DNA of 64,000 bases from Nemertoderma westbladi (lineage: Eukaryota; Animalia; Xenacoelomorpha): positions 3,984 to 67,983 of the forward strand of contig JAUCBJ010004074.1 of NCBI GenBank assembly GCA_032718475.1, in the 5' to 3' direction. Below are positions 9,231 through 58,661 of the stretch, one piece after another. The position numbers were made by a program, and so were the translations under genes. Numbering within the stretch: the stretch's first letter is position 1; each line of letters begins with the position of its first letter. The notes under the pieces are model-generated. The model saw only the letters and a program-made list of their open reading frames with translations, ran no database searches and was not told the origin of the DNA.

Positions 9231-9376
9231 GTGTATTGTAGGTGTAGAAGTGGAAGTGGCCTAGAAGGGGCTACAAATACTGTATGTGGATTATTTGTCC
9301 TATTGGAGACTTTGTCATAATGATTTGACATTCAATACCATCTAATCTGAGACTACCTGTGTATAGTGCCGCGAAC

Positions 9377-13644: not shown

Positions 13645-14810
13645 TATTCGCGCTTTCAGACCTTTGGCAGTTTAACCCGCCAAATTATGATGTCTTCTAG
13701 ATAATAAATCACTTTTAGCCTATGACAAGTATTTAATTCACTACACTAGTCGAAACCAATCTGTGCGCGATCATTCACCCGCTGGATATACCCGGGAGAT
13801 TGGGTTCGACGGCTTAATCTTATTGCTATGTAAGCTTAATGTATTATTCGACTGACAGTATTATATAATCTCTGACAATATTATTCACCTTCGGGGAATA
13901 TTAACAGTTCCTTTAGGACGTGGCGCTCTATCTATATAAACAGAGTTATGACTTAAACTACTCACAACGATATGGCTTAGTTATAATTCACATATATGGC
14001 GCATTCTTTAGGAAATGCTTCGTTATCAGTCTCACTCATACACAATGCTGCACAATACTGCACACTGATCTGCCGATCTTCACTGATTTTAGTTATATAT
14101 AAAAGGAACACGGACCGACTCATGTAGGGTCTATCAAATAACATTAGATTCACTTCAAACCACTTTAACATAAGTCACAATCGTTATATGTAACCTTTCT
14201 CTCTTACCTTCGGTATATCAAGAATATTGGGTTTCGGGGTTATTTATCGTTATTCCAAATATAATAATTCATCAACCATATTATGAAGAACTGACAGTAA
14301 ATAGCAGTATAACAATAGAAAGACCAAACATCAGTTTGATAAATCAGTTTGGTTTGTTTTGATAACGGATATATGTCCTTATAATTAAGCCTACTAGTGT
14401 TAGACTAAAACAGAAAAGCACAAAATATTTCCAAGCCGTTCTCTCCTGGCTCAGGACAGAAAGACCAACAACACTAAAAACTGATAAGAATAACCTTATT
14501 TACAAAATCTTCCACCCACCACAGAGAATGAGCATACAGATAGGAAAATTCAGTTCAGTAGATCTGTGATAGGTCGAAATCAAAACCAACTCAAATCCTA
14601 TTGGCAGATACAGAAAGCAGGGCTGTGGGGCAACCTTCCCAAGCTGGTTGGACGATCAAACGTAGCCCAGATCCCTTCGCACAGCAAATCAGCCAATCAG
14701 CCGGTAGCTTGCACTATTCGAGTTATAGATCCCTTTTTAGAGTATTCCAGCGCCTGGGGGGAACTGGTTAGCAAGGCAAACGAATCAGTTATCCCACAAA
14801 AGCTTTTACA
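13645..14810 (-). repeat. 3' LTR of A1 (1166 bp)
   Basis: Direct repeat of 35446-36611 with ~3 differences seen. Starts TGTAAAAGC on the - strand and is preceded by a purine-rich GGGAGCGG (PPT, 14811-14818). Confidence 0.97.
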
Positions 14811-14888
14811 CCGCTCCCAGAAAATGGGATTTAAGTCTATAAAATATACAAAATCACAATTTCTAATATACATAAATACTCTAAACAG

Positions 14889-16219
14889 TTAGTCTTTCTT
14901 GCGCGGACGGCGTTTACGCAGTTTTTTAAAGCTAGCCAGAGTCTTTTTCTCTTTGGGGCGAGCCACTTTACGAGGAGGGCTGTAGCTCCTAGGCGAAGGG
15001 TGCAATATAATTGCATCAGAAGGTGCAGGGTTACGATCGGTGTCTCGTCCATTTCGATATGCTTCTCCTCGAGCTGATTTTCCTCCGCTTGTCATGGGAT
15101 ACGTTCGTCCAAAACTCTCGCAGAGAATAGGGTTTTCTAAGCTTGATATCTTCTTAGAGATTCGAGATTTCCCAATCGAACTGAGATAAGGCCAATTCGT
15201 TTATCGATTGGACTTACTGTTATAACTTACGTTTATCTGAACAAACGCAGGTTTCTTTTTTGATCTTTATAGAATAGCGTTTAACTCGTTTCGTACAACG
15301 CTCTCCTTCACCTTGATGAAGGGTTGTATCGCGTTAATCGGGGACGACCATACGGTTGGATAGTGATATTAGGTGTCCGCGTCACAATCCGGCTAGGTAA
15401 GATGGGCGGCTAGCTAGAAATCACTGTCGGAGTGTTACCGATTAATTGTTAGGGTAGCACTAGATCTTTGAACAGTGAATACAGTCCGCGAGGATCCGCG
15501 ACACCACCAGGATCGTAGGTCTGAGGTCCAACTAAGGAATGAGGAGGTTTGACCGAGTATTCCGGGACTCTGATCGTAGGTTTACTCCAGGATCGTTCGA
15601 GCCGAGTGAGCATAGGTGGTACGTCAAACAAGTTTCGCTCGAAACTCCAATAAATATAACGAGCACAACTGTGTTTAACACAACGTTTCCGTGGATGTTT
15701 ATGTCTTTCCGTTTATTGGCTGGGTCTAGGGCATTTATCGTAATAATACCAAAGACGCACGTCTTGTAGGGGAAACGCGGATGATATTTATTTGTTGTTA
15801 CAATGCTTCTATCAAGAATTCCAAATATATGTTGGAGTTACCGCGTTTATTTGTTTCTTTAATGTCTTTTCTTTCGAGTCGATTTCGAATAGGATTTTCG
15901 CATTAGAATTTTGGTTTATCGTTTCGACTCCTCTGGGTAGGATATGTTCGACATAGTCCGTATCGTGTAAATCGATAGAATGGTCAATGGTTAAGAAGTC
16001 CATATATATACCATTACAATGCGTGTAGCGAGCGGTGAATTTTCCATAGTCCAATTCACGCGTAAGTTACTTCCAGGAAATCGTAGGTTCGATATAACAA
16101 CCATCATCCTTCGTAGTAGTTGGATCAGCGTCGCCGCGTATCAAGCTATCGACAAACGCTTGTAAAGGTAGAGTATATCTCTCCCTGATACCAAGATCAT
16201 CTTCTATTAATTCAGTCAT
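14889..16219 (-). pseudogene. Decayed ORF3 of A1
   Basis: Homologous to the start (MTELIEDDLG) and end (KKLRKRRPRKKD) of 54332-58584. It has stops, frameshifts and deletions, including ~2.7 kb lost at ~15045. Confidence 0.9.
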
Positions 16220-17419
16220 ATCTGCTATACGAGTTCACCAATATTATAATGAGTTTATATATTTATTAGGCGAGCGGGCGTCGCTGCCTACTTCTCCCTT
16301 GCCCCCGGACAGTGTGAGATTCTCAGCGCCGATGTACCGCTGTCGCTATACTTTCGCCAACGACGTAGCCGTACAACGACAACGATAACCGGCACAAGTC
16401 ACTCAACTGTCCGTCCCAAAGGCTTAGATGTACTTCGGTTTTCCTTGGAGAGTTAGGTTACTTTCACGATTGCGACTAGCTACTGTAAACACACTTTAGC
16501 AGTAACATTCACCTATAAACTCACAAACACCACACAACTGGTCACAACTACGCACATTCGGGCCATTTGTCCGTTAGTCAATGCCTTCCAGAATGTCACT
16601 GTATTATTATGTATCCTTGGATACTAGCAGTGCGCTATTTATTCCCTATGCTATTCAATGGGACAAGCTTTCTATTGTTCTTTTAACTCAATTCTAATTC
16701 TAGCGTGGTTGTTGCTATGGTGACATTATGCAAAGCTAGCGGTAGAATTAGGGTAATTCCAATGCATACAGATCTGGGATGTTATTTAATAGTATTCTTT
16801 AATAGTCAATGTTCTGTTTTATACATGACTTTATGAATTTTATCGGCTATTGACTATGTTTGGGAGACTTTCGCACACTCATATGCATAATAAGATAAAT
16901 CTCCGCTCCCTTGATCTATTAATTAATGGAATTTTGGGAATGTTATAAATTGCGCAAAAATGGCAATTTATTAAATTCATTAAAAGGCATGAATTTAAAT
17001 TATTCCCTGAAATTTTATTATTTACTAATTAGATGGACATATTTTGATTCTAGAATATGTCTGGGGACACAAGATCCTTAATTCTATGACAATTGTCTTT
17101 TTAAGAATATCGGTAAATGCTACGATATCTTAATTGACTAGAATTGTTGAAGGATCTGAATTTTACAGATTTTGATTTATTGGATTTGCAAATATTAAAT
17201 AATTAATATTTGAGATGGGCACCGATTTATTCCAGAACTTGTCTGGGGACGTTAACCACTGATTCTAAAATTTGTCTTTCAAGTATATCGGTGGGTGCCG
17301 CGATATCTTAATCGACTAGAATTACAGATGGTCAAAGGGTTTAACAGATTTATTTTGCGTTATACGCTACTGTTAAAGGGACATCACGCTACTATATGTA
17401 TTATTTAATATACGGTATG

Positions 17420-17874
17420 TGTCATAAAATATATATATTCAAGTAGGGAAATAAAGTTAGTTTGTTTTCGTTAATGATTTAATGTTAATGTGCATAGTAC
17501 AGTAGTTGGCAACAGCAGGGGTTCATTGACATCAACTCATACATTATATCATTGATATACATACAGTATCGTCTATATTATTATCTATTGTTTGTACAAC
17601 GCTAGAATTACCTCATCGTTTGGACGACATGCCCCTGCTGTTCGTCCTAATTAAAAGGGTCAATTAGTATTGCTACAATAATAGGAGTATACATATAGTG
17701 TTGGTGCGGTGATGGTAAAACCAGTTGCTAATTGTCGTTGTAATATGTGTCATTTTTGTAAATAGTTAGTTAATTATTAAATTAGAGAAATATGTAATCA
17801 TAATATTGTGTTTTTTAAACTGTTCATGGGCGGTTCAACAATCAGAAGAATATACATTCATCCCGTTCATGACA
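17420..17874 (+). repeat. 5' LTR of element B (455 bp)
   Basis: Direct repeat of 24126-24576, with TG...CA ends. Confidence 0.97.
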
Positions 17875-17887
17875 TGGCGCCCGATGT
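17875..17887 (+). promoter_or_regulatory. Primer-binding site of element B (tRNA-Lys-like)
   Basis: TGGCGCCCGA directly after the 5' LTR, matching the classic tRNA-Lys-type retroelement PBS start. Confidence 0.8.
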
Positions 17888-18216
17888 TAAACGGCAGTAA
17901 TATTCAACTGGGTAAGTCAAACTTCATTAGGATTACAGAATCACAGTAATTATATTCAAGTTGCTCAATGGGTTGTTCAAAGATATTCAAGTTGCGTTGG
18001 TATCTTCTATCTAATTGCAACAACCAAGGACAATATGAAATTATCGAAATCTGTTAATGCAAATTAGCGTCAACTACAGTAACTTCATAAACGTCTGACT
18101 TACTCAATTGTACTGGTACGTTACAGTAAGCACCAGTGCGATGCAAAACAGGATTGCTTCTGTCGCTTACATATTAATTCACAGGTTCAACACAGGATTT
18201 CCCAACATCAGCAAAC

Positions 18217-21200
18217 ATGTCAGAAATGGACGGGGAATTAACACAACTCAAACGTTCTCGTGGAATACTACGGGGAAAAGTCACTAGAGCGCAGAAGAGA
18301 CTGAATACGCAACTTGACGAAGCTGAGAGGACAACATTGATGGAGACGTTTAAAGATTTGAATCAACGACTCTTAGAGGCCGATATGCAAATCGGTATAC
18401 AGCTCGAAGATGACGAAATGGAAAGCGATCTGGACTATTCAGATGAGTATCAAACAATAATAAACAATGCAATTGCTTTCTTACGCAAGTCTATGCCCAC
18501 CAATCAGCATCATGCTGGTTATCACTCAAATACCACACTCAATGAACCTAGTTTTCAAGGTGTACATAATTCAACAGAATACATGTCCCACTTATCTATA
18601 ATTCAAAATCAAACAGAAGGGAGAGTTTTAGCACGTTCAATGCTGTCCAAACTAAAACCCCCTACATTTGGTGGTAATTTGTTGGATTTCAAAGGCTGGC
18701 ATGAAGCATTTCTCACAGCTATTGATGAAGCACAGGTGCCTGATGTTATAAAATTTCAGTACCTACGTCAGAGTCTCAAGGGAGAAGCCCTTAAGACTGT
18801 TGGAGGGCTAGCAGTAAACGGAACTAATTATTCAATAGCCATGAAATTATTAACTGAAAGATTTGGCAATGAAAGACAAATTATCAGGGCACACATAGAG
18901 CAAATAAGAGCCATTAGAAAAACCAAAACAACGTTACGAGAAATTTATGATCATTGCCAATCGCATGCAAGGGCTTTAGAAGCACTAGGTGTTTCAACTG
19001 ACAAATATGAGCTGACAGTAGTTCCAGATGTGTTAGCTGCACTTCCAGAGAGAATTGCACTAAGATTTTGTCGTAAAAATAAAGAGAAAGTCGAAAACCT
19101 TGAATGGATAATGGAACAAATCAAGGGGGAGTTGGAAGTGTAAAAGCCTTTGCTGAATTGCCCCGTTATTTTTATTATCTTTTACATTAAAATACTCTGT
19201 AGTTGACATTCTAATTTGGCGGGTTAAACTGCCAAAGGTCTGAAAGCGCGAACAGGAAGCTCAGGAAATGCTATCCAATACAATAAACCCACCCCATTCA
19301 ATAGACACTTTGTTGAGCAGTGATGGCCAAAACAGCTATCAACAATCGGTAGAAACCCCCAATGCACCCTTTCGTGATAAACTTAAGGAAAAACACGTCA
19401 ACAGACACACATACGGCGCAACAGCTGCTAATTTTGTGGCTAGTGTAACAAATGATGGAAAGGCTCACTTAAATGCCCAGTCGAGCTCAGGTACAGCAAA
19501 ATTGGGATCAAAACAAACAATTGTACCACATTGTTTGTTCTGTAGACAAATTCATTACTCAGCTGATTGTTCGACAGTAACTGACCCTTTGGAAAGAAAG
19601 GAAATACTAAAAGAAAAAGGCCGTTGCTATATATGTTTAAGCAAAGAGCATATGGCAAATAAATGCCAATCGATAAAACAATGCAAATTTTGCAACAATC
19701 GTTTTCACCATCCTGCAATCTGCCTGAAACGAGGTGTAGGCCCACAACGTCAATCTACAGTACTTGTTACTTCAACAGAAACAACCAATACACAACTGGA
19801 AGTACCAAAACCTACAAATATTACGTTGTCATCCACAACAAATTCTAACACAACCTTACAAACGGCGACTATCAATGCATACGATGACCAAAATAACGTT
19901 TTTACTATCAATTCTTTGTTCGACCCCGGCGCTCAACGCACTTTTATTTTACGGGAAGTGCTCGAACGACATTCATTAACAGTGATAGGAAGTGAAGTAT
20001 TGGCACCGCAAGGTTTTGGATCAAGTGCAAAAGCTTCGGAATGTTTCACAATTGTTGAAATAAAATTACAGTTGAGGAATTTGGAATTTGGAACAATTAA
20101 AGCATTAGTTATAGAAAAGATTTGTGATCCAATCTACAACATGGTTCCACATAACGTTATAAAACAAAGTAAAACGCTAAGCTCTCTGCAATTAGCAGAC
20201 GCAACTGTAACCAATGCTGCATTGTTTAAAATCGAGCTTTTAATAGGTGTTGACGAGTATTGGAACATAGTTTCTGGTTCCATAATTCGGGGCGCCCAAA
20301 ACGAGCCGGTGGCCATAGACAGCGCCGTGGGCTGGTTATTATCCGGCCCCGCATATATCCCTGACTACGAGGAAACTCTTGTAATCAAATCGAACCAACA
20401 CCTTTCCCCATCAACCACCTTAACGCTTGAATCGCGGTTGATTGCAAACCAATGCGTTGACATCGGTGACTCAGTTAAAGATCCTGAGTCACAAATTCTA
20501 ACTATGTTAAAACTATTCTGGTCCCTAGAGTCAATCGGAATTACAACACTTGGCGAAGAACTCAAACCCATAATAACTGACATTAAATTCAAAGAGGGAA
20601 AGTACGTAGTTCGTTTACCATGGAAGTTGGATCCATTCCAATTACCAGAACACTACCATAGATGCGCTACTCAACTGAAATCACTCATAACGAAATTGTC
20701 AAAGACTGGGTTGTTGATTAGCTACAATGACGTCATTGAGGACCACTTCAGTAAAGGGTATGTTGAGCTAGTCGATATTACGCAGCCGACTACCAATCCA
20801 ATTCACTATGTACCTCATCATGGGGTAATAAAAGAAACACGCCAGACAACAAAACTCAGAGTGGTATTCAACGCGTCAGCTATAGACACAAAGTACGGCA
20901 TTAGTTTAAATTCATGTTTAAATTACGGTCCTAATTTCTTACCATTATTGTTTCAAGTATTAGTACGTCTTAGAACCAACCGCATTGCAATAGTCGCTGA
21001 CATTGAAGCAGCATTTATGCAATGCGTAATACATCCTGACGATAGAGATATGCTACGTTTTCTTTGGGTTAAAGACATAAATGACATCGATGTAAATAAC
21101 CCAAAATTGCAAGCATATCGCTATACGCGGGCGATGTTTGGACTCTCGCCATCACCAGATATTTTATTTTCTATTGTCAGGAAACATTTACAAAGTAAAT

Positions 21201-23926
21201 TAGATACTGCCAACGAAAACAAACGTATTGTAATTGAAAAACTATTGCGGGATATGTATGTAGATGACTTTGCGTCTGGTGCAGACACTGTGTCGTCTGG
21301 TCTTCTCTTGTATGAGAATGCAAAGCAATTGATGTTAGAGGGTGGATTTAATTTAAGAAAATGGCTTACAAATTCTGTCGAGCTACAACAAATTATAGAT
21401 CAATTTGAAAAACCCAAAATCGTAAGTTTAAAAACAAATTCTGTACCAATATTATCAGAGGAAGACCAGACGTACGCAAAGGAGTCATTGTGTTTATCAA
21501 CACCACCTAGCGGTGAAACAAGGATTTTGGGACAAGTGTGGGATATAAGTAAGGATTACTTTGGGTATAACCTTGACCACGTCATATCCTTTGTTAAGAA
21601 TCTAAAACCAACGAAAAGGGCTATATTGCAACTAACGGCTCGGATCTACGATCCATTAGGGCTTATATCTCCCTTTTTAACGCCCTTACGAATCGTATTT
21701 AGGGAATTAGCTAACAGTAAGGTAGACTGGGACGAACCACTACCTACTCATTTATTGAGCAAATGGGAATCATGGTTAAACAGTTTAGAAATTTTAAATA
21801 GCATTACAGTACCTCGATGTACAAACTTACTATGTAGTAAAGTTAAACTGGCACCTAAACAAAAACAATCAGTACCACGGTTAGAATTACTTGGCGCACT
21901 AATACTGGTAAGACTAGTACTGTTAGTGTATCAAGGTTTGGTACTACAAATAACACGTTCAGTATTTTGGACCGATGCATTAGACGTACTGTATTGGATA
22001 CGACCAACAAATAATACTCACAAACAATTTGTACACAATAGAGTACAGGAAATCCGTGACGTAACACAGAAATTGGGAGCAGAATGGAGGTGGTGTCCAG
22101 GGCCGTGTAATCCAGCGGACATTCCAACAAGGACAATGGCACCAGACAAATTATTAAATAACAAACTATGGTATGAGGGTCCAGACTTTATATCGGGGGA
22201 GGAATCTGGTTGGCCAGAGTCACCAGTGATTACTGAGGCTCAAGTATCCAAGTGTGCTCTGTTAGATATAAAGTCCACCCTCATAATGACAACGACAATT
22301 AAGACAATCAATACAGACGATACAGGATTATCTCAGATAATTAATGTAAATAATTTCAGTACAAAAAGGGACGTACAACACAGAATAGCTTGGATTCTAC
22401 GGTTTGTAGAAAATATTAAAGCAAAACGTTTACACAAAGACCCCGTGTTATTACCATACTTAACAGCCAAGGAACTACATTTAGCCGAAATTAAAATAAT
22501 TCTAGATTCACAACGTGTAAACTATTCTCGGGAATTGTCTTATCTTCGTGATAAATCAACTCAGTGTCCTAACGTTGTTAAACAATTAAATCTTGTGTTA
22601 GATGAATTAGGTATTATCAGATGTCAGGGTAGAATAATCAATGATACTATCCCATTCCATACCAGAAATCCTATTCTTCTTGCACCAGGTGACCATTTTA
22701 CAAAACTCGTCATATTAAACTCACACGAGCGCGTTTCACATTCCCGAGTGAGAGACACACTAGTAGAGGTTCGTGAGAGATTCTGGATACCATCCGCTAG
22801 ACGGAAAATTCAACAAATTTTGTCTTCGTGTGTCATTTGTAAAAGGTTTCAAGGAAAACCCTATACAATGCCAGCAATCAGCCCCTTGCCAGTTTCTAGA
22901 ACGATTGAAACGCGCGGCCCCTTTGATCATTGCGGAGTCGATCTTTGTGGACCACTTCATACAGTTGCCAAACCAACCGAGACCGAGACTGAGACAATAC
23001 AACCAACAGAAAAGGCGTGGATTGTTATGTTTACGTGTGCTGTAATAAGAGCCGTTCATTTGGAAGTAGTAACGTCTTTATCAGCGGTCGCTTTCATTAA
23101 CGCATTTCACAGATTCATAGCCAGAAGAGGAATACCGAGTATTATGTTTAGCGATAATGCTACAAACTTTAAGCGCAGTGCCAAGGAGCTAAGAGCGTAC
23201 CGAATATTCTTGACAGATCCTGAGGTAGTCAGGATTTTTGGAGATCATAATATTACCTGGGAAAACAATATTGCAAACAATCCAGCAGCGTATGGATTCA
23301 TAGAACGTTTAATTGGCACTTGCAAATCCGGAATTCGTAAGTTAATAGGACGAGCTGTCTTATCACTTGACGAGTTACATACTGTTGCGCTTTCGGTAGA
23401 AGCATCAGTAAATAGCAGACCAATCACATATGTTTACAGTAAGTTAGATGACGATGTACAGCCTCTCACCCCGAGTCACTTTCTTGTAGGAAAACGGCTC
23501 TGTGCAATACCAGATTTATCAGATAAAGGGATTCTACCAAACCCTGAATCTAAATCTAAATCGGCAAGAAGAATGATACTTGATAGGGTTAAATATCAAG
23601 AGGCAGCGAAAAATTCAGTGTGGAAGTTGTGGCGTACAGATTATTTGAGAGAGTTACGTTCTTCTCACATTAGTAACAACGTAGCCCCCAAATCAGACAT
23701 CATCCCGAAGGTAGGCGCTATGTGTCTATTACATAACGAGTCTATTCCCCGTTGCATGTGGAAGTTGTGTAGGATAGATGAATTAATTGTTTCAAGGGAC
23801 GGCCGTGTGCGGTCTGCGAGAATTTCAATAGCGCCCAGAAATAAGGAAGCGAGATCACTCGTTAAATCCATACTACAATTATATCCATTAGAGGTATCTA
23901 CTACAAATACACCACAAATAGATTAA
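18217..23926 (+). pseudogene. Gag-Pol of element B, interrupted by a 116-bp insertion and missing part of RNase H
   Basis: Pao Gag (KPPTFGG..KFQYLRQSLKGEA), three Cys/His knuckles, protease LFDPGAQRTF, RT YVDD, integrase H..H/CVIC, DLCGP, SDNATNF, ERLI. The frame is restored if 19139-19259 is removed. Confidence 0.93.
19139..19254 (+). mobile_element. 116-bp miniature solo-LTR of family A
   Basis: TGTAAAAGC...GGTTAAACTGCCAAAGGTCTGAAAGCGCGAACA are the family A LTR ends. TSD GGAAG at 19134-19138 and 19255-19259. Confidence 0.93.
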
Positions 23927-24125
23927 AATAGTCATAAAGAAATACAATACGAACATTCTTCATACTTTATCATATTTGAAAATTATAATGTGCAATTAAT
24001 TACACTAAACAATATAACATATTGTTTACTGTATATTAGTCATTTTTTGAAATTTTTTAAATGCAATAATGTATAACCCCACGTGGTGAAGGTTATGATT
24101 TGAAACTATTAGTTTCAAGGGGGAG

Positions 24126-24576
24126 TGTCATAAAATATATATATTCAAGTAGGGAAATAAAGTTTGTTTTCGTTAATGATTTAATGTTAATGTGCATAGT
24201 ACAGTAGTTGGCAACAGCAGGGGTTCATTGACATCAACTCATACATTATATCATTGATATACATACAGTATCGTCTATATTATTAACTATTGTTTGTACA
24301 ACGCTAGAATTACCTCATCGTTTGGAAGACATGCCCCTGCTGTTCGTCCTAATTAAAAGGGTCAATTAGTATTGCTACAATAATAGGAGTATACATATAG
24401 TGTTGGTGCGGTGATGGTAAAACCAGTTGCTAATTGTCGTTGTAATATGTGTCATTTTTGTAATTAGTTAGTTAATTATTAAATTAGAGAAATATGTAAT
24501 CATAATATTGTGTTTTTTAAACTGTTCATGGGCGGTTCAACAATCAGAAGAATATACATTCATCCCGTTCATGACA
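24126..24576 (+). repeat. 3' LTR of element B (451 bp)
   Basis: Preceded by the PPT AAGGGGGAG (24117-24125). Confidence 0.97.
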
Positions 24577-25028
24577 GTATGAGAGCAATATCGCACGAAG
24601 CAATGTCAGTGTGAAGAGGCAAGTCGTTTCCAAGGTCTACCCAGAGCTTGGTTTAGCCGAGACACGAGGATCTGAACTTTGCATTCCTAATACTCTGCCT
24701 ACCAATAATACTTGAATATAGTAGTGGCTTTATTGTACTTTAATAAGTACGGACATTTCATCTTACTGTAGTTACGTATTTATAATATGATACGGACAGT
24801 AAGGAAAAGAAAGAATTATTTCTCGCCGTCGCACTAAATATATAATATAAGTAATTACGTACGCAATAAACACGAATATATTGCACTATTCTACTAAATA
24901 ATAGCTAAATAATATTCTACTAAATTAAATAAAACGATTATAATAAAATTACATAGCAATACATACATAAATATAAAAATAATAAAATAATATAAAATAA
25001 TAGAGTCACACGCCCACTCCGAACGATA

Positions 25029-28000
25029 TTAAGTTGGGGAGTCCCTAGATGTCGGTTGGATTAGGGAAGTGGTCGTGGGAAGAGTTTCTTGCCTTCCATA
25101 GTTTCCGGAGAGCTCTCTGTCTCTTTCCAGTAAACATAAACGACCCACTGGGCGATTGAGCTGTTGAGTCTCAAAGACTATCCCTGGTTTCTTAAAGTTA
25201 CGTCGCATGACGACGAGTTCTACTGATCGCACCAAACCATCGCTCGAGATATGAGTCTCGATGATACGTCCTGTTTGCCATCGCTTACGTGGGAGATCGG
25301 GGTCCACAATAAGCACCATGTCTCCAGCGCTGACGTTTTCTTGCTGCGCAAACCACTTAGTTCGAAGTTGTAGAGTGGGCAGGTAATGTTTCTCGAAATG
25401 GTCAGCGAAACGACGGGATAGCAACTGCATAAGTTGCCAGGTTCGACGGCAGTACTCGTCTCCGTCTGAGATCTCCGATCGTGGGAGCATGGCTACGGGT
25501 TTCTTCAGTAGAAAGTGCGCGGGTGTTAGCGCTTCCAGGGAATCAGGACTTGAAGAGACTGGCATGAGCGGTCTTTCGTTGAGATAAGCGGCGATTTCCT
25601 CCATTAACGTCCGCAATAGTTCGTCGGTGAGATAAGCGCGACAAGGCACAATAAAGTGGAACGCAGTCTTCACGCTTCTAATCAATCTCTCCCAACTTCC
25701 TCCCCACCAAGGGGCGTCGGCGGCGTTGAAGGTCCAGCTAGACGCTGTTATCTTTAGTTGATCGTCCACCTGTCTTTTGTTCCAGTCCTTTACGTAAGCT
25801 TGAATTTCGTTGTTGGCGCCAATGAAGTTCGTTCCCTTATCTGATCTCATCGTGTTACTGGTTCCGAAACGAGCAATCTGTCGTCGTAAACTCAACACGA
25901 AGCTGTTGGTGGATAGATCGTTTACCATATCGAGATGGATAGCTCTACAAGTCATACAAACGAAGATGACACACCATCTCTTAACTATAGTCCGGGCACG
26001 ATATACTTCAATAGGGCCAAATAAATCCACACCGGTATTAGTAAAGGGTGGTTCATAAAAGCTTACTCTTTCCCTAGGTAATTCTGCCTCTCGCTGTGTC
26101 AAAGGCCTACTGAATGCCTTCCTACAGGGTATGCAGTTCCTAAGGACTTGGTTCAGAGCCCTACGGGGTTTATAAAAATAGTAGCGAGTTCGAATTTCGC
26201 TGAGAACTCGTTCTCTTCCAGCATGATACAGTTTGCTATGAACATCTACAATCATCTTGATTTGTATGTCAAGATTTCTAATGAGTATGGGAAACTTAGT
26301 GTCAAAGGATAATGGGGCGTTGGTAAGCCTGCCTCCAACACGTATTAACCCATCTATCATGGTACTAGAGAAGCGATCCCTTAAGCGCATCTGCGGATTT
26401 CTTAACAACAGGAAATACTTATCGGAATCCTCATAGCATTGTAGGAGTCTCAGCATCTGTTTGTTGGTTTCATCATGCTCCTGGTAACTGATCTTCTCCT
26501 TTAGAAACCTGTCGGATATCTTGTATTTAGGAAGATCTTTAACAACATGGACTCGTGCAGATGTTGATGGAGCATCATCACTATTGGTCTTTGTCCCGGA
26601 GTAACGATGATGAAAACATCGTTTTAAATAGGTGACGGCTTTACAGAGCCGATTCCAGGAACTGTAGTGACGTATCGCTCTCTGCAAGAGGGGTGAGAGT
26701 CCTTGCGCGATATCTGGTATTCCAGATTTCCAATCCTTGTCACGGATTTCCAAGACTTCTTTAGTCGTGGCGGTGGGTTTCTGATCCAAAGCATCCTCTC
26801 CGGAAGTAAATAATACAGATAGATCAACCGCAGGTTTAAACAACTTCGATTTACTCGCTCGAGTTTTGGGTTTAACTTTCTCCGCTCCCTTGGCCTGTCT
26901 GATCTCTGCTGTTGTGAGATGGGGAGGCCATTCTTCTTCTTCTTTGTAGAGAAAGTCGGGTCCACCTAACCATTCGGGAGTATTTACCAATTCCTTTGGA
27001 GTAGCTCCTCGGGAAGCGATGTCTGCTGGATTAATCGTTCCGGGGCAATGTCTCCATTGGTCCATCGTCGTGCGACTAAGTATGATGGCTACTCTGTTGG
27101 TAACGAAGACGCTGAACTGACAGACTTCATTGGTTATATACTCTAACACGAGTAAAGCGTCGGTCCAATAGACAGTTTTCTCTAATGGATAGTCAATCTG
27201 TTCGGTTACATTCCGGCCGATGGCTGTAGCGTATAGAGCCGCTTTTAACTCCGCTCGAGGAACTTTCAACTTGTTGTTGATTAATGCCTTAGAAGTAACC
27301 AGGGCGACTTTGATTCCATCCGGAGTTTCCACTCTTAGATAGGCTACTATACCTATTCCCATATCGCTGGCGTCTCCAAACACATGGAGTTGATAGGAAT
27401 ACGTAGGGAGAACATGACCAAAATATGAACGGGAAATTATAAAATCCTCGATAGCCGGCAGAGAATCTTCCCATTTCATCCACTTCTTCAATAATTCTCC
27501 CTTAAGTGGATCGTCCCATGAGTGGTTTTCAAGCCACATTTGTTGTACCAAACTACGAGCAATCAATATAACTGGGCTAATAAATCCCAATGGATCGAAA
27601 TAAGTGCTCAGTATACTTAAGCAAATCCGTTTGGTTCGAACTGGATTATCTCGCTGTTTTAGCTGGAAAAACAGGATATCTCGCTCTGTGTCCCATTTCA
27701 AGCCGAGTGTCTTGGTTTCTGGCAGATCATCTTTGATCAAATCTAGATCTTTCGCCCCTCGATCTTCCGCAGGGATCGACTCCAGAAACTCACGGGAGTT
27801 GCTGGTGAATTTCGTTAATCGAAACCCACCTCTTTTTAAGCACTCTACCGTTCCTTTAGCGACCTCAATGGCTTCCTCAACTGATGGAAGGGACTTCAGA
27901 TTGTCGTCCATGTATATGTCTCTCTTGATGTTGTCGATCACTTCCTTAGAGAAGGCCTCTCGGTTGTCCTCTGCAGTGGTACGCACTACCGAACAGGCGT

Positions 28001-31000
28001 TGGAAGGGCTTGAGATTATCCCAAAGGCCTGGATGGTCATCCAGTACTCCACCGGTTTCTGGTTGAGGTCTCCTTCGGGCCACCACAGAAATCGTAGACT
28101 ATCTCGATCCCTATCTAACACCTTGACTTGTAAGAACATGCCTTCTATATCGGAGGCGAAAGCAATCGAATATTGTCTCAATCTTAAAAGAATTCCCAAC
28201 AAAGATTGAAGCAAGTTGGGTCCGGGTAACAATTCAGAGTTAAGGGATTGACCCATGTAAAGAGCGGAGCCATCAAACACTACTCTCACTTCATGTGGTT
28301 TACCGGGTTTAGGAACGTAATGGTGAGTTAAGTAATACGTTCTTTCAGTCACAGGTGTTTCTTCCGGTACTCTCTCCGCGCATCCCTTACTAATAAATTT
28401 CTCCAGCTGTGTTTGATACATTGCTTTAGCTGAAGAATTAGCCGTAAGGCGTCGATGGAGTTGCGCGATTCTTTTTTCCGCCAAGGGTCTGTTATTGATG
28501 AATTTCGGTTCTCTCTTGCGGAAAGGTAGACCGACTTCATACCTACCTTGATCTTTGAGGAAACGTGTAGTTGTCTCTTGGATCTGCTTGGCCCTTTCCT
28601 CTTCCACTGACAAGGCTTTATCGTAGGAATTGGGCTCTACCGCCTCTTGCGTAAAGAATCGTACGGCATGTTCATCTCGAGTCTTGGCATTACAACGCTC
28701 AATGACGTCATTTAACTCTTCGTTATAAGCTTCTCGTTCAGTTGGATAAAGAAGTTGACATAAGTTCACTTGGTTTTGCCAAGCCTCGATTTCCTTAAGG
28801 AGGTCGATGGTATTCTCCTCATCAAAAAGCTGGTGCACGTCGTCGTTATCTGAGGAGTATGGGGTTCCCTCAGTTAAATCGTCTCCCTCACTAGTATCAT
28901 CTTCCCATTCACTCACCTGGTAGACGCGATCTTGCGGTAGTCTTTCTCTGAGTGTTCTACGGGAAGGGCCAGTAAAGTACCAACCTACTCTAGTTCTTAC
29001 CGCATAGGTCTGTAGTGGCTGCGGTTGAGCAGGCCGTTTCTCCAATGTCTCCAGCGCCTCATGCGCGTTTTGGCCGAGGAGTATTTGCACTCCAGGATAA
29101 TCAGTCTGGAATCGAGGTATCTTAAGATGTTGGATGCTCTCATCCTCGTCCCAATTATAAAGGTCTACTTGAGTAGTAGCGAAGTTCTTTATAGCCACCA
29201 ATTTCACTGACCTTATGCTATGTTCTCCTAGTTCGTCTTGTGGGGTGGACAACGCGCCTACATAATAATCAGCTGTTACTGTAGATTTCCAAACTTGCAT
29301 AATGCCTGACATATTTAGCTTGGTTCGGATCTTAGGTTGTCCAGCGAAGATGTCTTCGGCTAGTTCTTTATCAATGAATGTTCCTGTGCTGCCGGAGTCC
29401 AGGAGGGCGTTCACTATATAGCTTTTCTGAGGTCCATGGACCCGTAACTGGACTACAGGAAATTCTCGGATTCCTACATTGGAAGTTGGTGCTTTCCACG
29501 ATGGTTGTCGCTCAGAAGTAGTTAGAGTGAAGTCGCTGTCTGTATCTTTTTCATATGTGAGTGCTCGATACACTGCGGTATTTATCATGTAACAGGATTC
29601 GTTTTCGTCGGAGAACTCGTCCGTATAGAATCCTTCCATCTCAGATTGATCAGTGTCGTTCACATCACTGAATTGGACATGTAGTTCGGAATCACTTACC
29701 TGATTAGGACTATTTCGATCGAATTCAGCGTGCAACAAGATATGATGTTTCGCACCACACTTTGCACACCTTATGTCTGAGTAACAGGTTCGCCGTTGAT
29801 GTCCTTGTCTGAGGCAATTATAACACAACCGCTTGTCCCACATGACTTCACGTCTCTCAGTTAATGATTTCTTTAGAAATTCATCACACATATTCAAACG
29901 ATGGGTCCCATCACATAGCGCACATTTTGGTTTGATGTTACTCACCTTAATCTGAGTCACATTGTGCACACTTGCCTTTTCTTTGGGCTTTCTCACCTGA
30001 ATTCTCTTGGGAGACGTAGGAGGAGTTTTTCTTACCTGTTCTCTCCTGTCATTTGCTCGAGACTTGAATTTACTTACCTGATCTTTAGGCATTTTATTGA
30101 CATAATAAGATCTATCAGTGTCTTTCCCGCTATCTTCTCCTTGAGAAGTCTGGCTTTCGCCGTCGTCTGTATAACACACTGGTGTTACCTTTCTTCTGGA
30201 GACGGGTTTTTCACTTACCTTGTTTTCCGGTGTCTTCTCTCTGGACAGTTTCAGGAGCTGTAATTTCACTTCTCCATCTAGGAATGACATGAGATCAGCC
30301 ATGGTAGGGTCTCGTCGTTGTTGTTCCATCATATATAACACTTTCTTATCCCAGCGTGTACCTACTCCACCCTTCGGTAAAGTAGAAGCCACTGCTCTAA
30401 TAACCATAGTGTTCTGATACTCATGAGACTTACCTAGCCAATCTAATTGTCTGCAGATCTCCTGGATCTCATCGGAAAACTCGATAATCCCGCTGCTAAT
30501 AAACTTTCGGGGCGCTACTAACTTTGCATACAAATACCCAGCGATGTTATTCCTATTACCATACCTGATGTTTAATGTATCCCAAACTTGTCTTAATCCG
30601 TCTGGATGTCCAATAAACTTTAACGCCATTAACTTGGGAGATCCTTCCAAGCACTCGATGAGGTATCTAAGTTTCTCTCCATTAGATAGTACAGAGTTCT
30701 GTATGTTATCTTTGTAATATTCATTAAAAGGTAACCATTTCATCTCATCCCCATTGAACTTGATGATCTCTCCCACCTTCACCGCTTGCCGGGCTTCGGT
30801 TCTAGCCATTTGACACGTAAAACTTTCTTGGGCCATCGTGTTATTTAATATCGAGTTATCGGTATATAAATTTCTCGGATTATGATCAGGTCTATAGGGA
30901 ATGTCATTATCAACAGGTCTATAATTACCCTTAATAGGGTTCACTATAGGAGTTTCTACTTCGCTAGCAGTATATATGCGTGTAGGCTCCACACCTTGCG

Positions 31001-33182
31001 CATGAGATACTTCAGACCTAACAGGTTGACACATTGTTACCGAGGGTGGTGGTATACCCTTTTGAGTATTTACTAATTTATCGCATTCTAGCGCGATACT
31101 TTGCTGCACTTCTTGCAACTCTAGTCTACTTTCCCTTACTGTGCCCTTGAATTGCTGAACAGTCTCCTGCATCTGCCCGAGCAGGAGATCCATCCCCCGC
31201 TGTCTCTCGTCCACCCATTCGACCGCCGAAGCGGGAGTCGCCAACGTTGTAGCGGGCGGACGAGGGACCACGGGCGACAAATCAGGAATATTTCGCTCGG
31301 GATCCAGGACCTGAACTGTCTCCTGGGCAGTTCTACTGGGCACAGGTAGCTTAGTGCTATGTAGAGGGAATTTAGAGTTAGCTTAAGGGAGCACAGGTGT
31401 GTCTATCACCGAAGGGGTGATTTCAAAAACAGGCCTAATTATTTCAGGCTCATCTACTATAGTAGGGAGTCTTTCTATTTTAATTATTTGGTCTGTAGGT
31501 TCTGTACTACCTAAGTTGGTGTTATTTAGTTGCCTTCTAACAGCTGGAGGCAAATCAGGCAATTTCTGACGGTGGAATGTTCTTTTACGTCTACTTAGAC
31601 GAGATCTATTTCCCTTGCCTTCAGTATCGGTGGTATCGCCTTCCTCAGATGATGTATATCCCTGTCTTTTGGGAGTAGATCGATTCATCATCTGCATATT
31701 ACTAGCTGTTAACTGTTTATTTATGCAGTCTTGATTCTCCTGAATGTTTTCCAATTCTAATTGGGTGGTTTCTTCAGTCGCTCTCCGTTCGGCTTCTGCC
31801 ACTGCCTCTGCGGCCTTTCTTTCAGCCTCGGCCGCCTTTGCTTCTGCCGCTGCCGCTGCCGCTTTTGCCTCTGCCGCTGCCTCTGCCGCCTTTGCCTCTG
31901 CCGCTGCCGCTTTTGCCTCTGCCGCTGCCGCTGCCGCTTTTGCCTCTGCTGCTGCCTCTGCCGCTGCCGCTTTTCTTTCTGCTTCTGCAGCTACCACTGC
32001 TGCTTTCTTTCTGTCTTCTATACGTTTTTTCTTTACTTGTTCCTCCTGGACTCGTGTGATGCGGAGTTGTTCATCAAATTTAGCCTGGTTCGCAGCCCTC
32101 ATTTCCACATCGATGGCATCCAACACAAGCTTGGTTCCTTCACTATTAGGGCTAAGTCCCTCTAACCTTCTCCTCAACTCGTCATCACCTAAAAAACGTT
32201 GATAGTCTGACAGATAGATGTCAATGGCATCCCTCTTATGCGGCTTCTCTGCCGTCGCTTCACTTTCCACTTGGGAAAAAGTAGCGTCTGTTGATTCTCC
32301 ATGGGTTGAGCGCTCCTCTAGCTGAGCTTTCCACTGAGCTGTTCCTTGAACCTGGAGACTCACCCTTTGAAACCAAGTCTTTACGGCAACTTGCAACGAC
32401 GTGTCTTGTCTTCGTTTAGAAGCTTCTTCAAAGGCCGATAAAATTAGCCTGATTCGCAGAATTCTTTCTCTAACTTGATAAAGCAGTTGTCCCTGCTCTT
32501 GAGGTCCTTGTGGTTGTTGAAACAGTTGTCCTTTTACTCGCTCCATAGAGCTGAAGAATCCCTGTGCGTATCCGGCTGCGGACCTCTTCCACACAGCTGG
32601 ATCTATAGTTTCCTTGGCTACTCCCATCCGGTGTATGTCTTCCCAGGCAGCTTCTGATAAATCAAACGGGAGTCCGGGTCCGGGGAAGTTCCATTGCGAC
32701 TCGACAATAGACTTCAGTTCTTCACTCGTGTATCCCGCATAATTATCTTTAGTTGATCGTTGACTTCTCGCCCAATCGATCTGGTGTTCTTCCACTGCAA
32801 TCAATAACCTAGTGAGTACGGCTGCAGGAAGGATGAGAAGGGGATCCGAATAAACCGCTTCCGTCATCTTTGCTCCGCGCTCGGGTGTCAGCTCTACAGT
32901 ATCCTCACTACTGGAGCTGTTGGGCCGTTGAGAAATAAGTTCTTGGCTAGCGGGTTGTTGCTGTTCTGCTGCTTCTTGGTCCCGCTTGACCTGAGCTCGA
33001 GTGCCTATGATAGACCTACGATGTTGGACCAGCCTAGGTTCTGTTATTACTACTGGAGGGATGACCTTCCTCACAGTGGGAGGTGAACTGAACTTAGGTG
33101 TAGACGGTTCTACACCTTTATCTGAGTCGCAGATAGTTACATCCAATAAACTGTCTGACAGGTTCTGCTTAGTATCAGACAT
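25029..33182 (-). CDS. Gag-Pol polyprotein of A1 (~2,717 codons) with one in-frame TAA at 31383-31385
   Basis: ORFs 33182-31383 and 31343-25029 share a frame, and A2 has GAA at the stop. Motifs: Pao Gag (KFNGDEMKW..KLRYLIECLEG), knuckles CALC/CYNC/CAKC, PR LLDSGS, RT YMDD, RH HVFGDAS..RAEL..WTD, IN H..H/CIPC, DLFGP, SDKGTNF, WERLI. Confidence 0.93.
31785..32005 (-). repeat. Ala-rich (A)EAKAA coding repeat in the Gag N-terminal extension
   Basis: gccgctgccgcttttgcctct-type repeats; shorter version in A2 at 46200-46295. Confidence 0.9.
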
Positions 33183-34541
33183 GTTTGTTTACACAGTTGA
33201 ATGTCTACCGCTATATTACAGTCTAAGCAAGTCTAGTAATTCAGTGTTAACTGCTAGCCTAGTAATTAATTACCGATACTGCTACTCAGTGTAGCGTGAT
33301 ATATATATAATATATTAGAATACCGGTATGCTTATAGTATATATAACTATATAAGTACTATTACAGACTAGGTTTATCACAGAATACCGGTATAATTTTA
33401 GCACAAATATATATAAATATATAATAGGCCTATCGGGAATACCGGTATACAGCTTACAGTTTGTAGTATATATAATTCTGGACTAGAATTAATTACAAGT
33501 ACCGGTATAATTTCAGCCTAAGTTTATAGAAATAAAGATAATAGGCCTATTGTAAATACCGGTATATCAATTATTTTAAATAACTGAATTTCTGAATTTC
33601 AAGGGTTACTTGGTTACTTTAACTTACTTTATTACCGTTATTTAAGCAGTAGTCCAACTGATATTGAGACCTAATTGTTGTATGGCAGGCCTACTATTTA
33701 TAAATCGTTAGATTTGATTTATAATATATATATACCCGTTTTAATGGGTTTTGTCAATTGTTTGAAATAAATGTTATTATTTCTGGGGAGTAATCACTAC
33801 ACAAAGCGGTGCGCTTTCAGTGAAGTGTTACTTATAGGACACTAAAACAAATAATACTAATTTACCTAAGTTACTTAATACTACAAATTACGTACAATTC
33901 GGGTGAGATTACAATCTCTAAATAAACACAAAAATTTACAAAAAACACAAAATCCGAATTTACAGGGTAATTTTACAAGAAGTCTACAAACCAGCCTAAC
34001 AAAGGGTTAGAAATCTGGTTATTACAACGGACAGGGTACTGCGGTATTTGAAAATAATACGTAGTAGTAAATACACTGCGTTGTCCAGATAGGAAAATAC
34101 CACCGCCTGACGACCTATAGCCGTATCGCTATAGGTACTACGTTATGTATCACGGAGTGTTCCTACCTAGAAGTTAATAGAGCTAATCGAACGTGCCTAT
34201 CAACCACTTTACAACACAAATATAATGCCTACACTAATTACTTTCGGAAAGCACTGTACACTAAACCCTAAATTAGGTACGAGTACTTGTACAACAGATA
34301 ATCAGTAGTTAAATATACTTGAACAGCTAAAAGAACCACGGCATCTGCTGGAGTGACCGATGCACAAAATCACCAGTCTTTACCTACGCCAAGCAGCCCG
34401 TGTAGTACCGGGGTTAATTTAACTATAGCGGTATGTATAACAAACACAATTACTGTAGGAACAAACTTGGGGAATGAATGTTGCGAATAATCGCATAAAC
34501 TCTGAATAATAAATATTACGCTATGCGTAAAAACCACTCAA

Positions 34542-35080
34542 ACAAAATGCAGACCAAATACTGACAGACTACCATCAAGCCTAAACAAACTACGGTATAT
34601 GCAGACTCCGAAATGATTAGGTAGTATGCGTTCTAACCCAGTAGTACGACTTATTCTTTAGTTGGGGGTTTACCTTACAGCAATGGCTGCCCCTACTTCC
34701 TAACCGTTCTTTATCGGACAGATGCTTTACACACACCGAAATCCGTTCAGACCTAATAGCAGCCAGACAACTATCCAGCCTACAAATTATCTAAATAAAT
34801 ATTATACGCTACCCGTACAGACTACACAAACAAAGTACAGACTAAACGATGGCAGACCACTCTCAAGCCTAAATAAACTACAGGACATGCAGACTCCGAA
34901 ATGATTAGGTAGTATGCGTTCTAACCCAGTAGTACGACTTATTCTTTAGTTGGGGGTTTACCTTACAGCATTGGCTGCCCCTACTTCCTAACCGTTCTTT
35001 ATCGGACAGGTGATCTACACACACTGCAATCCGTTCAGACTTAACAGCAATCAGACAGCAGCCCAGCCTACAAATTGTCT
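34542..35080. repeat. ~288-bp tandem duplication in the A1 leader
   Basis: Near-identical core gcagactccgaaatgattagg...tttatcggacag at 34601 and 34889. Confidence 0.9.
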
Positions 35081-35433
35081 GTACAATATGATCAGGCTTA
35101 CACGCCTTCTGTTCAATACTGGCCTACAAATAAATAAAACTGACAGAAATAAGTAAGCTCCAAAAGAAACAAGGGGTGTAGAGTCCCTAATCTCTTAAAC
35201 AGCCTACCGGTATACAATAATCAAATCGAATAATACTAATGTACTTATACAGGAAGTACCGGTTAGGACAGTTAGGCCTACGGACCTACAGAAGTACCGG
35301 TTCTGGCAGTTGGACCTACGGACCTACGGCAGTACCGGTTCTGGCAGTTGGGCCTACTGACCTACAGATGTACCGTTCAGGTTTACCGGTTGACCGGTAC
35401 TTTCAACTGTATTGCTTACTGCAATAAAGAAGC

Positions 35434-35445
35434 TATATCCGTTAT
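35434..35445 (-). promoter_or_regulatory. Non-canonical PBS position of A1 (ATAACGGATATA), complementary to its own LTR
   Basis: Directly follows the 5' LTR terminal CA and has no TGG. It is the exact reverse complement of the element-strand 12-mer at 36174-36163. Confidence 0.6.
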
Positions 35446-36611
35446 TGTTTGCGCTTTCAGACCTTTGGCAGTTTAACCCGCCAAATTATGATGTCTTCTA
35501 GATAATAAATCACTTTTAGCCTATGACAAGTATTTAATTCACTACACTAGTCGAAACCAATCTGTGCGCGATCATTCACCCGCTGGATATACCCGGGAGA
35601 TTGGGTTCGACGGCTTAATCTTATTGCTATGTAAGCTTAATGTATTATTCGACTGACAGTATTATATAATCTATGACAATATTATTCACCTTCGGGGAAT
35701 ATTAACAGTTCCTTTAGGACGTGGCGCTCTATCTATATAAACAGAGTTATGACTTAAACTACTCACAACGATATGGCTTAGTTATAATTCACATATATGG
35801 CGCATTCTTTAGGAAATGCTTCGTTATCAGTCTCACTCATACACAATGCTGCACAATACTGCACACTGATCTGCCGATCTTCACTGATTTTAGTTATATA
35901 TAAAAGGAACACGGACCGACTCATGTAGGGTCTATCAAATAACATTAGATTCACTTCAAACCACTTTAACATAAGTCACAATCGTTATATGTAACCTTTC
36001 TCTCTTACCTTCGGTATATCAAGAATATTGGGTTTCGGGGTTATTTATCGTTATTCCAAATATAATAATTCATCAACCATATTATGAAGAACTGACAGTA
36101 AATAGCAGTATAACAATAGAAAGACCAAACATCAGTTTGATAAATCAGTTTGGTTTGTTTTGATAACGGATATATGTCCTTATAATTAAGCCTACTAGTG
36201 TTAGACTAAAACAGAAAAGCACAAAATATTTCCAAGCCGTTCTCTCCTGGCTCAGGACAGAAAGACCAACAACACTAAAAACTGATAAGAATAACCTTAT
36301 TTACAAAATCTTCCACCCACCACAGAGAATGAGCATACAGATAGGAAAATTCAGTTCAGTAGATCTGTGATAGGTCGAAATCAAAACCAACTCAAATCCT
36401 ATTGGCAGATACAGAAAGCAGGGCTGTGGGGCAACCTTCCCAAGCTGGTTGGACGATCAAACGTAGCCCAGATCCCTTCGCACAGCAAATCAGCCAATCA
36501 GCCGGTAGCTTGCACTATTCGAGTTATAGATCCCTTTTTAGAGTATTCCAGCGCCTGGGGGGAACTGGTTAGCAAGGCAAACGAATCAGTTATCCCACAA
36601 AAGCTTTTACA
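35446..36611 (-). repeat. 5' LTR of A1 (1166 bp)
   Basis: TGTAAAAGC...GCGCAAACA on the - strand; direct repeat of 13645-14810. Confidence 0.97.
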
Positions 36612-43973: not shown

Positions 43974-45017
43974 CCAGTAAAAAATCCCCATGCGTAACGC
44001 ATTCGTAGTTAACATTCGTAATTAACTTCTAGGTAGGAACACTCCGTGAAACATAACGTAGTACTTATAGCGATACGGCTATAAGTCGTCAGACGGTGGT
44101 ATTTTTCCTATCTGGACAACGCAATATATTTACTACTGCGTATTATTTTCAAATACCGTAGTATCCTGTCCGTTGTAATAACTAGATATTCTAACCCTTT
44201 GTTAGGCTGGTTTGTAGACTTCTTGTAAAATTACCCTAAAAAATTCGTACTTGTAATTTTTGTGTTTATTTAGAGATTGTAATCTCACCCCGCAATTGTA
44301 CGTAATTTGTAGTAATAAGTAACTTAGGCAAGTAGAATTATTTGTTTTAGTGTCCAACAAGTAGCACTCCACTGAGAGCGTACAGCTTCTGTGTAGTGAC
44401 TCCTTCCCAGAAATAATAACATTTATTTCAAATATTGTGACAAAAACCCATTATACGGGTATATATATTATAAATCAACTCAAACCGATTTATAAAATAG
44501 TAGGCCTGTCATACAACAATTAGGTCTTAATATCAGTTGGACTACTGCTTAAATAACGGTAATAAAGTCAAGTAAAGTAACTAAGTAACCCTTAAAAATT
44601 CAGAAATTCAATTATTCTAAAATAATTGATATACCGGTATTTACAATAGGCTTATTATATTTATTTCTATAAATTTGAGCTGAAATTATATACCGGTATT
44701 CTGTAATTAATTCTAGTCTATACTTATACTTATATATACTATAAGTGTAAGCTGTATACCGGTATTCACGATAGGCTTATTATATATCTATATATTTGTG
44801 CTGAAATTATATACCGGTATTCTGTGACAAACCTAGTCTGTAATAATACTTATATATATACTATAAGTGTATTCCGGTATTCTAACATATTGTATATATA
44901 TCACGTTACACTGAGTAACGATATCGGTAATTAATTACTAGGCTAATAGTTGATACTGAATTATTAGACTTGCTTTAACTGTAATATAGCAGTGGGCATT
45001 CAACTGTACAAATAAAC

Positions 45018-58584: not shown

Positions 58585-58661
58585 CTGTTTAGAGTATTTT
58601 TATATTTTAGAAACTGTGATTTTTATATTTTATAGAATTAAATCCCATTTTCTGGGAGCGG

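Follow-up and report, generated by a model that had tools for sequence, protein, structure and literature searches.

A long BEL/Pao retrotransposon family of Nemertoderma westbladi with a likely RNase D-like third gene and a putative self-priming site

Which kind of retrotransposon fills large parts of the locus studied here, how long is it when complete, what does its additional gene encode, and how is its reverse transcription primed? The window is a stretch of 64,000 nt of Nemertoderma westbladi DNA (GenBank assembly GCA_032718475.1, contig JAUCBJ010004074.1, positions 3,984 to 67,983 of the forward strand), and all positions given below refer to the whole window in forward numbering. A self-comparison of the window reveals two copies of one element, denoted A1 and A2 (family A). 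On balance, we lean towards reading family A as a long and abundant BEL/Pao element whose third open reading frame (ORF3) likely encodes an RNase D-like exonuclease with CCHC knuckles and which is likely self-primed. The copies and their main parts are as follows.

13645..36611, minus strand: A1, a BEL/Pao element of 22,967 bp including the nested element B
35446..36611, minus strand: 5' long terminal repeat (LTR) of A1, 1,166 bp, TG...CA ends
13645..14810, minus strand: 3' LTR of A1, 1,166 bp, with terminal TA in place of CA
13640..13644, plus strand (copy 1), and 36612..36616 (copy 2): target-site duplication (TSD) CGCAG, flanking A1
63165..63169, plus strand: empty paralogous target site of A1 with one copy of the TSD 5-mer
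25029..33182, minus strand: Gag-Pol of A1, 2,717 codons (8,154 bp), one in-frame TAA at 31383-31385
44021..59833, plus strand: A2, 15,813 bp, 5'-truncated, with broken gag-pol, spacer, ORF3 and a 3' LTR (58662-59833)

Without B, the single copy A1 measures 15,805 bp. It has a pair of LTRs with TG...CA ends, differing at 3/1,166 sites, within a TSD of 5 bp, where 4-6 bp are typical of BEL/Pao; the 3' LTR ends with TA in A1 and with CA in A2. A2 misses about 2.4 kb at its 5' end and thus has neither an LTR pair nor a TSD. It is colinear from the leader to the 3' LTR, and its ORF3 is broken at one place only. Identity between the copies is 88.8% for the region of reverse transcriptase (RT) and RNase H (RH) and 76% for the LTR; judged by their sequences, A1 and A2 are different subfamilies.

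That family A belongs to BEL/Pao is virtually certain. Gag-Pol of A1 comprises DUF1759, a triple Cys-His box, protease (PR, LLDSGS), RT (YMDD), RH (DAS), integrase (IN) and DUF5641, i.e., a Pao-type Pol in PR-RT-RH-IN order, and Pfam matches are obtained for Peptidase_A17, DUF1759, DUF5641 and Integrase_H2C2. The Cys-His boxes of Gag are located at ORF residues 487, 520 and 539, a triple pattern described for BEL/Pao Gag (excerpt of PMC554778). The protein search yields 378 matches at E values up to 1e-50, with 33-37% identity over the whole query among the 120 listed; named sources among the matches listed are echinoderms, a hemichordate, amphioxus, fish, a mollusc, a fluke and a moth. In a tree of 43 of the 120 listed matches plus A1 and B, i.e., one holding no named reference elements, A1 forms a long branch beside 42 matches (support 0.80). 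The N-terminal part of Gag-Pol is about 670 aa longer than in relatives. Its RT region begins 1,600 residues in; among 99 full-length matches, the median for this start is 933 and the highest value 1,330. The Gag extension also carries an Ala/Glu/Lys-rich coiled-coil-like repeat (31779-32009), which is shorter in A2.

With regard to total length, the parts (LTR 1,166, leader 2,263, Gag-Pol 8,154, spacer 1,640, ORF3 4,253, 3' gap 77 and LTR 1,166 bp) add up to 18,719 bp, a composite drawn from A1 and A2. Each part length reported in the preliminary description of this locus proved right, and its estimate of about 2.5 times the length of B agrees with the ratio of 2.6 to the 7,157 bp of B. It had also claimed that a large unit of 18-19 kb moved recently by normal integrase chemistry. 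TSD and LTR identity bear this out for A1 at 15.8 kb and not for the larger unit: they date the ORF3-deleted form and not the 18.7-kb composite. The unusual size and expanded architecture claimed for the family can be upheld in part as well. BEL/Pao elements are 4.2-10 kb long according to the profile of the virus taxonomy committee ICTV (PMC8742986), a range exceeded by A1 at 15.8 kb, whereas automatically called BEL/Pao elements reach 21-22.8 kb. The latter calls, apparently not curated for nesting, extend up to 22.8 kb with a median of 7.4 kb (excerpt of PMC3118150). Taken by itself, the size is thus less remarkable than the preliminary description had it.

The additional gene is found in both copies, in different states.

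14888..16250, minus strand: decayed ORF3 remnant of A1, 2.7 kb with the nuclease-like and knuckle regions gone (ends approximate)
54332..56848, plus strand: first frame of A2 ORF3, no known domain or transmembrane stretch; a D-x-E at 56483 is the candidate for the first nuclease motif
56638..58584, plus strand: second frame of A2 ORF3, with an RNase D-like segment (56722-56856), a Y-x3-E motif (57109), two CCHC-type knuckles (57748 and 57811) and a C-terminus that is basic

In A2, the frame switches in the overlap 56638-56848, i.e., between the first and middle nuclease motifs. A programmed frameshift seems a less likely cause of the two frames: the sole slippery-type word is a weak one and comes only towards the end of the overlap, and two public contigs over this region show one gap each, consistent with a copy-specific break. 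The A1 remnant shows 9 stops and 6 frame-breaking gaps per 372 aligned codons. Given an ORF3 riddled with stops next to a gag-pol with one stop, we infer that ORF3 decayed before the last jump of A1. Since the A1 lineage would have transposed on after this decay, ORF3 appears dispensable in cis, its protein being accessory or supplied in trans. The last 50 ORF3 codons (58432-58584; 14888-15041 in A1) encode a basic, nuclear-signal-like tail that is stop-free in the deleted A1.

We consider it likely that ORF3 holds an RNase D-like DEDD 3'-5' exonuclease domain followed by CCHC knuckles and is not an envelope (Env) gene. Among 18,950 NCBIfam models, its best match is RNase D (TIGR01388, E 0.0017), and the Atlas points, if weakly, to PF01612 together with zf-CCHC (score 0.80). 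A HMMER scan of 1.84 billion proteins returned two matches, namely P0122 and P0121, where the latter is a spurious bacterial repeat protein and was dismissed as a relative. P0122, a single-member protein on a 9,449-bp ENA contig, matches at E 3.9e-8 (30% identity over 171 residues) and has the same order of a nuclease-like region and then knuckles; it matches PF01612 itself at E 0.2, and its knuckles are similar to retroviral nucleocapsid. The middle motif region of DEDDy exonucleases (helix, strand, Asp) is present in ORF3. Its Asp and the Y-x3-E are conserved in both proteins, i.e., the candidate last motif reads Y-x3-E and not Y-x3-D in either (with a weak profile match for P0122 only). In the first frame, the D-x-E at 56483 can be aligned to that of P0122, at a score that is not significant.

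A two-row profile of ORF3 and P0122, used in a blind search, gave weak matches in 43/301 proteobacterial genomes, with E values per genome of 4.7e-4 to 0.048 and almost all of them falling on the same positions. Of the 30 top bacterial loci that were fetched, 29 are of RNase D type, 28 by their first motif and one more as PF01612 by Pfam; the Pfam scan took in 25 of the 30 loci and assigned 25/25 to PF01612. The RNase D profile scores of 23 bits/93% are inflated because the proteins were picked by the query, such that the unbiased tests are the 301-genome profile search and the NCBIfam scan. Word-based searches found ORF3 relatives in 0/4,039 candidates and, for P0122, only P0122 itself. Metagenome scans for ORF3 relatives were empty, tblastn against phages and plasmids gave only noise, and PHROGs gave nothing.

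We also compared the coding parts of A1 and A2. For the Gag extension, the ratios of non-synonymous to synonymous rates (dN/dS) are 0.19 and 0.29; the Gag core has 0.10, RT-RH 0.04 and IN 0.03, and the ORF3 blocks present in both copies show values of 0.46, 0.28 and 0.25 despite the decay in A1. By codon position, the differences are distributed 39/37/69 in the longest ORF3 block and 30/31/31, i.e., unbiased, in the non-coding spacer used as control. These low ratios argue that both the Gag extension and ORF3 were functional protein.

The working state of the ORF3 product is less clear. That ORF3 is DEDD-derived we hold with good confidence, while for the prediction that it is still catalytic we see the chances as evenly balanced. 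Several results count against a working nuclease, or against the assignment at large. For the first motif, equal scores are reached by 838/5,000 shuffles and 55/120 other windows, hhalign gives 0.1%, and compared to P0122 the motif is displaced upstream by about 35 residues. Statistical support is confined to some 45 residues around the middle motif, Pfam gives no match for ORF3 itself, PDB sequence searches with ORF3 no relevant one, and P0122 lacks any NCBIfam match. AlphaFold models are unusable (predicted local distance difference test 31.6 and 36.8). Among population differences (40 listed of >3,300), 6/13 are synonymous in ORF3 (p 0.07), where the 13 were classed over the whole ORF3 including the part absent from A1, and 10/19 in gag-pol. 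ORF3 might thus be an RNA-binding or structural accessory, i.e., an inactive DEDD derivative (EXD1- or Maelstrom-like) or a second Gag-like nucleocapsid protein. Beside the unsupported first motif, Glu for Asp in the last motif and the nucleocapsid-like knuckles of P0122 fit such a protein, and inactive DEDD derivatives are discussed in an excerpt of PMC5408684. Yet acidic residues occupy all three motif positions in ORF3 and P0122 at 30% identity, and the same excerpt reports the Asp-to-Glu swap for rotifer ORF3 nucleases, so we rate a non-working ORF3 as a somewhat doubtful alternative. An ORF3 of envelope type, like the env genes of Tas, Cer7 or roo, is very improbable. It would be in its usual BEL/Pao place, i.e., after pol; but the top 19-residue hydropathy values of ORF3 are 1.07 and 1.19, and neither a signal peptide nor a transmembrane anchor is found. 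As there is no hydrophobic anchor, ORF3 is not Env; it carries instead the nuclease-like segment, knuckles and basic tail.

How might such an element be primed? Two short stretches of A1 are relevant here.

35434..35445, minus strand: 12 nt directly after the 5' LTR, without a tRNA-type TGG start, candidate self-priming site
36163..36174, minus strand: candidate self-primer, a 12-mer at LTR positions 438-449 that recurs in the 3' LTR

The 12 nt after the LTR are the exact complement (12/12) of LTR positions 438-449 and start at the first base after the LTR. A 12-nt match is reached in 20/20,000 Markov-simulated LTRs and at 2/2,695 interior pseudo-sites (offsets <=3 allowed), i.e., by a chance of about 1/1,000. 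The predicted 12-nt duplex has an energy of -14.8 kcal/mol, with pair probabilities of 0.84-1.0 in an 835-nt fold. Element B, which has a TGG site, attains only 5 in the same complement test. Within 2 mismatches, A1 has no further sites for the 12-mer beyond its two LTRs. The A1 leader holds no TGG before nt 284, the 18-nt tRNA primer-binding site that the ICTV lists as a descriptive trait is absent from A1, and Rfam and tRNA scans found no match within the window. LTR block 401-450 is 73% conserved in A2, compared to 36-66% upstream and 44% just downstream; the 12-mer itself differs at 2 positions in the A2 LTR. We rejected the 12-mer as a sharp U3/R border, given that the similarity of A1 and A2 climbs gradually and is stable only past LTR position 500.

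From this we lean, moderately, towards reverse transcription that is self-primed by the element's own RNA and not by a tRNA. This has to be weighed against a large BEL/Pao element that is primed conventionally, either by an unusual tRNA fragment or with a damaged primer site in A1, where the 12-nt complement would be due to chance or to long-range 5'-3' pairing and ORF3 would still be an accessory nuclease-like gene. Three observations weaken our reading, of which the single copy and the TATA-like word also speak for that alternative. The layout is known from one copy (A1) and was spotted post hoc; there is no covariation support, as the 5' end of A2 is lost and its LTR 12-mer carries the 2 changes; and a TATA-like TTATAA at LTR 427-432 lies only about 10 nt upstream of the 12-mer. 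Should this word act as the TATA box, transcription would begin downstream of the 12-mer, and self-priming would not work. Moreover, an 18-nt site for tRNA-Arg/Gly is the family norm (PMC8742986), half-tRNA priming is known in Copia (excerpt of PMC6317226), and the second 12-mer, which the RNA carries within its 3' LTR, would suit long-range pairing. Neither the chance of about 1e-3 nor the start of the match exactly at the LTR edge is expected under conventional priming, and the first 283 nt of the leader are free of TGG. A dead primer site is unlikely, too, given the recent insertion of A1 and the almost intact state of its gag-pol. We regard conventional priming as less probable than self-priming. 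For the complete element, the corresponding alternative is that 18.7 kb is a composite on paper or an extinct form, the mobile family now consisting of the ORF3-deleted form of about 16 kb and other internal deletions. In its favor, TSD and matched LTRs are found only on the deleted form, no single copy has the 18.7-kb length, and none of the public contigs listed spans the whole element. These public contigs further show a joint within 10 nt of the A1 deletion as well as three other shared deletions, and the ORF3-core depth (X1) is about 100,000-280,000 versus 260,000-1,400,000 over gag-pol, where depth does not equal copy number; the ORF3 core is also shallower than the spacer. Against it stand the colinear A2 with its single break in ORF3, the purifying selection on ORF3, and the public runs. 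Five of these contain part of the 3' region (more than half of its words in three), and the contigs of four runs that map onto A2 (136,380, 40,512, 1,194 and 718) cover 30/30 bins in 4/4 runs; ORF3 is covered throughout (30/30 bins, 4/4 runs). We thus deem an extinct or purely composite form unlikely, and a full-size form of about 18.7 kb very probably exists or existed. Internal-deletion joints in public contigs are located at 48883-50656, 50843-52551, 54700-57504 and 55694-58422, three of them in at least 2 runs; the respective forms are likely amplified non-autonomous subfamilies.

Given the self-priming model, a replication cycle can be sketched. The full-size RNA would begin at LTR position 438 or slightly upstream of it and would fold back, with its 5' end pairing to the 12 nt behind the LTR across a loop of about 730 nt. 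An RNase H cut would free a short primer, as in Tf1, and the subsequent reverse transcription and integrase insertion with a 5-bp TSD would be of the ordinary kind. ORF3, located behind the conserved 1.6-kb spacer, would be expressed on its own and might serve as an accessory factor, possibly in trans, that acts on RNA 3' ends, speculatively by primer trimming or by interfering with small-RNA silencing. In its full form, our proposal is tentative: family A might be the first self-priming BEL/Pao lineage, making BEL/Pao a third LTR superfamily to lose tRNA priming independently, in an 18.7-kb element with its own DEDD exonuclease plus knuckles that may trim the self-primer or counteract small-RNA silencing and could be supplied in trans to ORF3-deleted copies.

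The remaining parts of A1 and the element nested in it are located as follows.

33183..35445, minus strand: leader of A1, 2,263 bp, with tandem repeats (288-bp x2, 38-bp x3.3)
24577..25028, minus strand: 5' part of the A1 pol-ORF3 spacer, interrupted by B
16250..17414, minus strand: 3' part of the A1 spacer (lower end approximate)
14811..14818, minus strand: short purine-rich tract before the 3' LTR of A1, identical in A2
17420..24576, plus strand: element B, a conventional BEL/Pao element of 7,157 bp in the A1 spacer, in opposite orientation

Conservation between A1 and A2 exceeds that of synonymous sites (dS 0.25-0.59) in the spacer (52692-54331, 91-95%) and the leader end (44021-45017, 92%), which are likely cis-acting signals. 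Element B has LTRs of 455/451 bp, the TSD GTATG and a TGG-type primer site; the respective B site is empty in A2. Its gag and pol lie in separate frames, and B is probably non-autonomous because its first RNase H motif is gone via an in-frame deletion. The LTR differences (3/451 plus one indel for B vs 3/1,166 for A1, p 0.10-0.36) do not support a joint move of A1 and B as one unit of 23 kb. The empty site of A1 comes from a segmental duplication of 93-98% identity (9374-13647/59833-63172, 36607-37411/63161-64000 and 54-2491/38150-42580). Satellite arrays of 38 bp are found at 9374-10935 (41 copies) and 59833-60689 (22.5 copies), the second of which adjoins the 3' LTR of A2. The window also contains two 94%-identical intronless RING plus B-box (TRIM-like) genes (35-1894 and 38150-40164, the second in two frames). 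In an open frame at 3325-4848, a 30-bp tandem array (Pro/Thr/Ala-rich) runs into further motifs, which resemble those of a non-LTR APE endonuclease.

Compared to known systems, family A shares with Belpaoviridae the single Gag-Pol, the triple Cys-His box, the PR-RT-RH-IN order, TG...CA LTRs and the 5-bp TSD, and with Sinbad of BEL/Pao the LLDSGS and DAS motifs (excerpt of PMC554778). Among the matches listed, it is nearest to elements of aquatic deuterostomes and molluscs. It differs in its length of 15.8-18.7 kb, the lack of a tRNA site, a non-Env ORF3, a late RT, a pol identity of only 33-37% and its long branch. The missing tRNA site marks a variant and not an exclusion, because BEL/Pao membership rests on Pol. 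How BEL/Pao elements replicate is described as little understood, with priming by tRNA being the assumption (PMC8742986). We found no report of self-priming or an exonuclease ORF3 in BEL/Pao within the literature covered, with most subscription journals, Repbase and Dfam being outside its scope; term look-ups for both features in excerpts of PMC13524379, PMC12440569, PMC3601003, PMC554778, PMC6238403, PMC2774666 and PMC6338049 were empty. The identity of ORF3 and the absent tRNA primer site are more unusual than the size, and both go beyond the preliminary description. Elements like family A exceed the 15-kb bound of the survey in PMC3118150 (excerpt), and filters for tRNA sites would miss them.

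In Tf1, the RNA's first 11 bases anneal to the primer site and are released by RNase H (excerpt of PMC7175516). Tj1 shares this self-priming layout (excerpt of PMC4600332), and it is predicted for the Tcn1 and TAR lineages and in plant lineages (excerpt of PMC6317226). As in these, A1 has a candidate primer site after the 5' LTR that is complementary to a stretch inside the LTR (11-12 nt in the Tf1-type layout) and no tRNA site, in this case in one copy. Unlike Tf1/sushi, which belong to Ty3/Gypsy, family A is from another superfamily and would use 12 nt with a loop of about 730 nt and a putative transcript start and cleavage. Self-priming in family A would thus be of independent origin, since the superfamilies differ. 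If true, a self-priming BEL/Pao element would imply that Gypsy, Copia and BEL/Pao elements each became free of host tRNAs, in repeated and independent events.

Juno and Vesta are gypsy-like elements. These LTR elements of bdelloid rotifers carry a DEDDy ORF3 of unknown function that, as in family A, encodes an RNase D-like exonuclease after pol, without a transmembrane domain and with an Asp-to-Glu motif change (excerpt of PMC5408684). In family A, this change affects the last motif, and the domain lies within an ORF of about 1,400 residues, preceded by some 700 residues of no known domain and followed by CCHC knuckles. With a DEDD-type ORF3 under selection, the finding from rotifers is carried over to a second superfamily. 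The abundant natural subfamilies with and without ORF3 let the function of its nuclease be tested by comparison. With regard to size, the giant Ty3/Gypsy elements Ogre (16-25 kb) and Burro (>30 kb) likewise owe their length to long LTRs, to extended non-coding parts that contain tandem repeats, and to additional coding capacity; they differ in superfamily and cargo, and family A is shorter, i.e., below the 20-kb internal threshold used there (excerpt of PMC6431247). Each ingredient of family A is thus known from elsewhere, namely giant size from Ogre and Burro, a DEDDy ORF3 from rotifers, and self-priming from Tf1/sushi.

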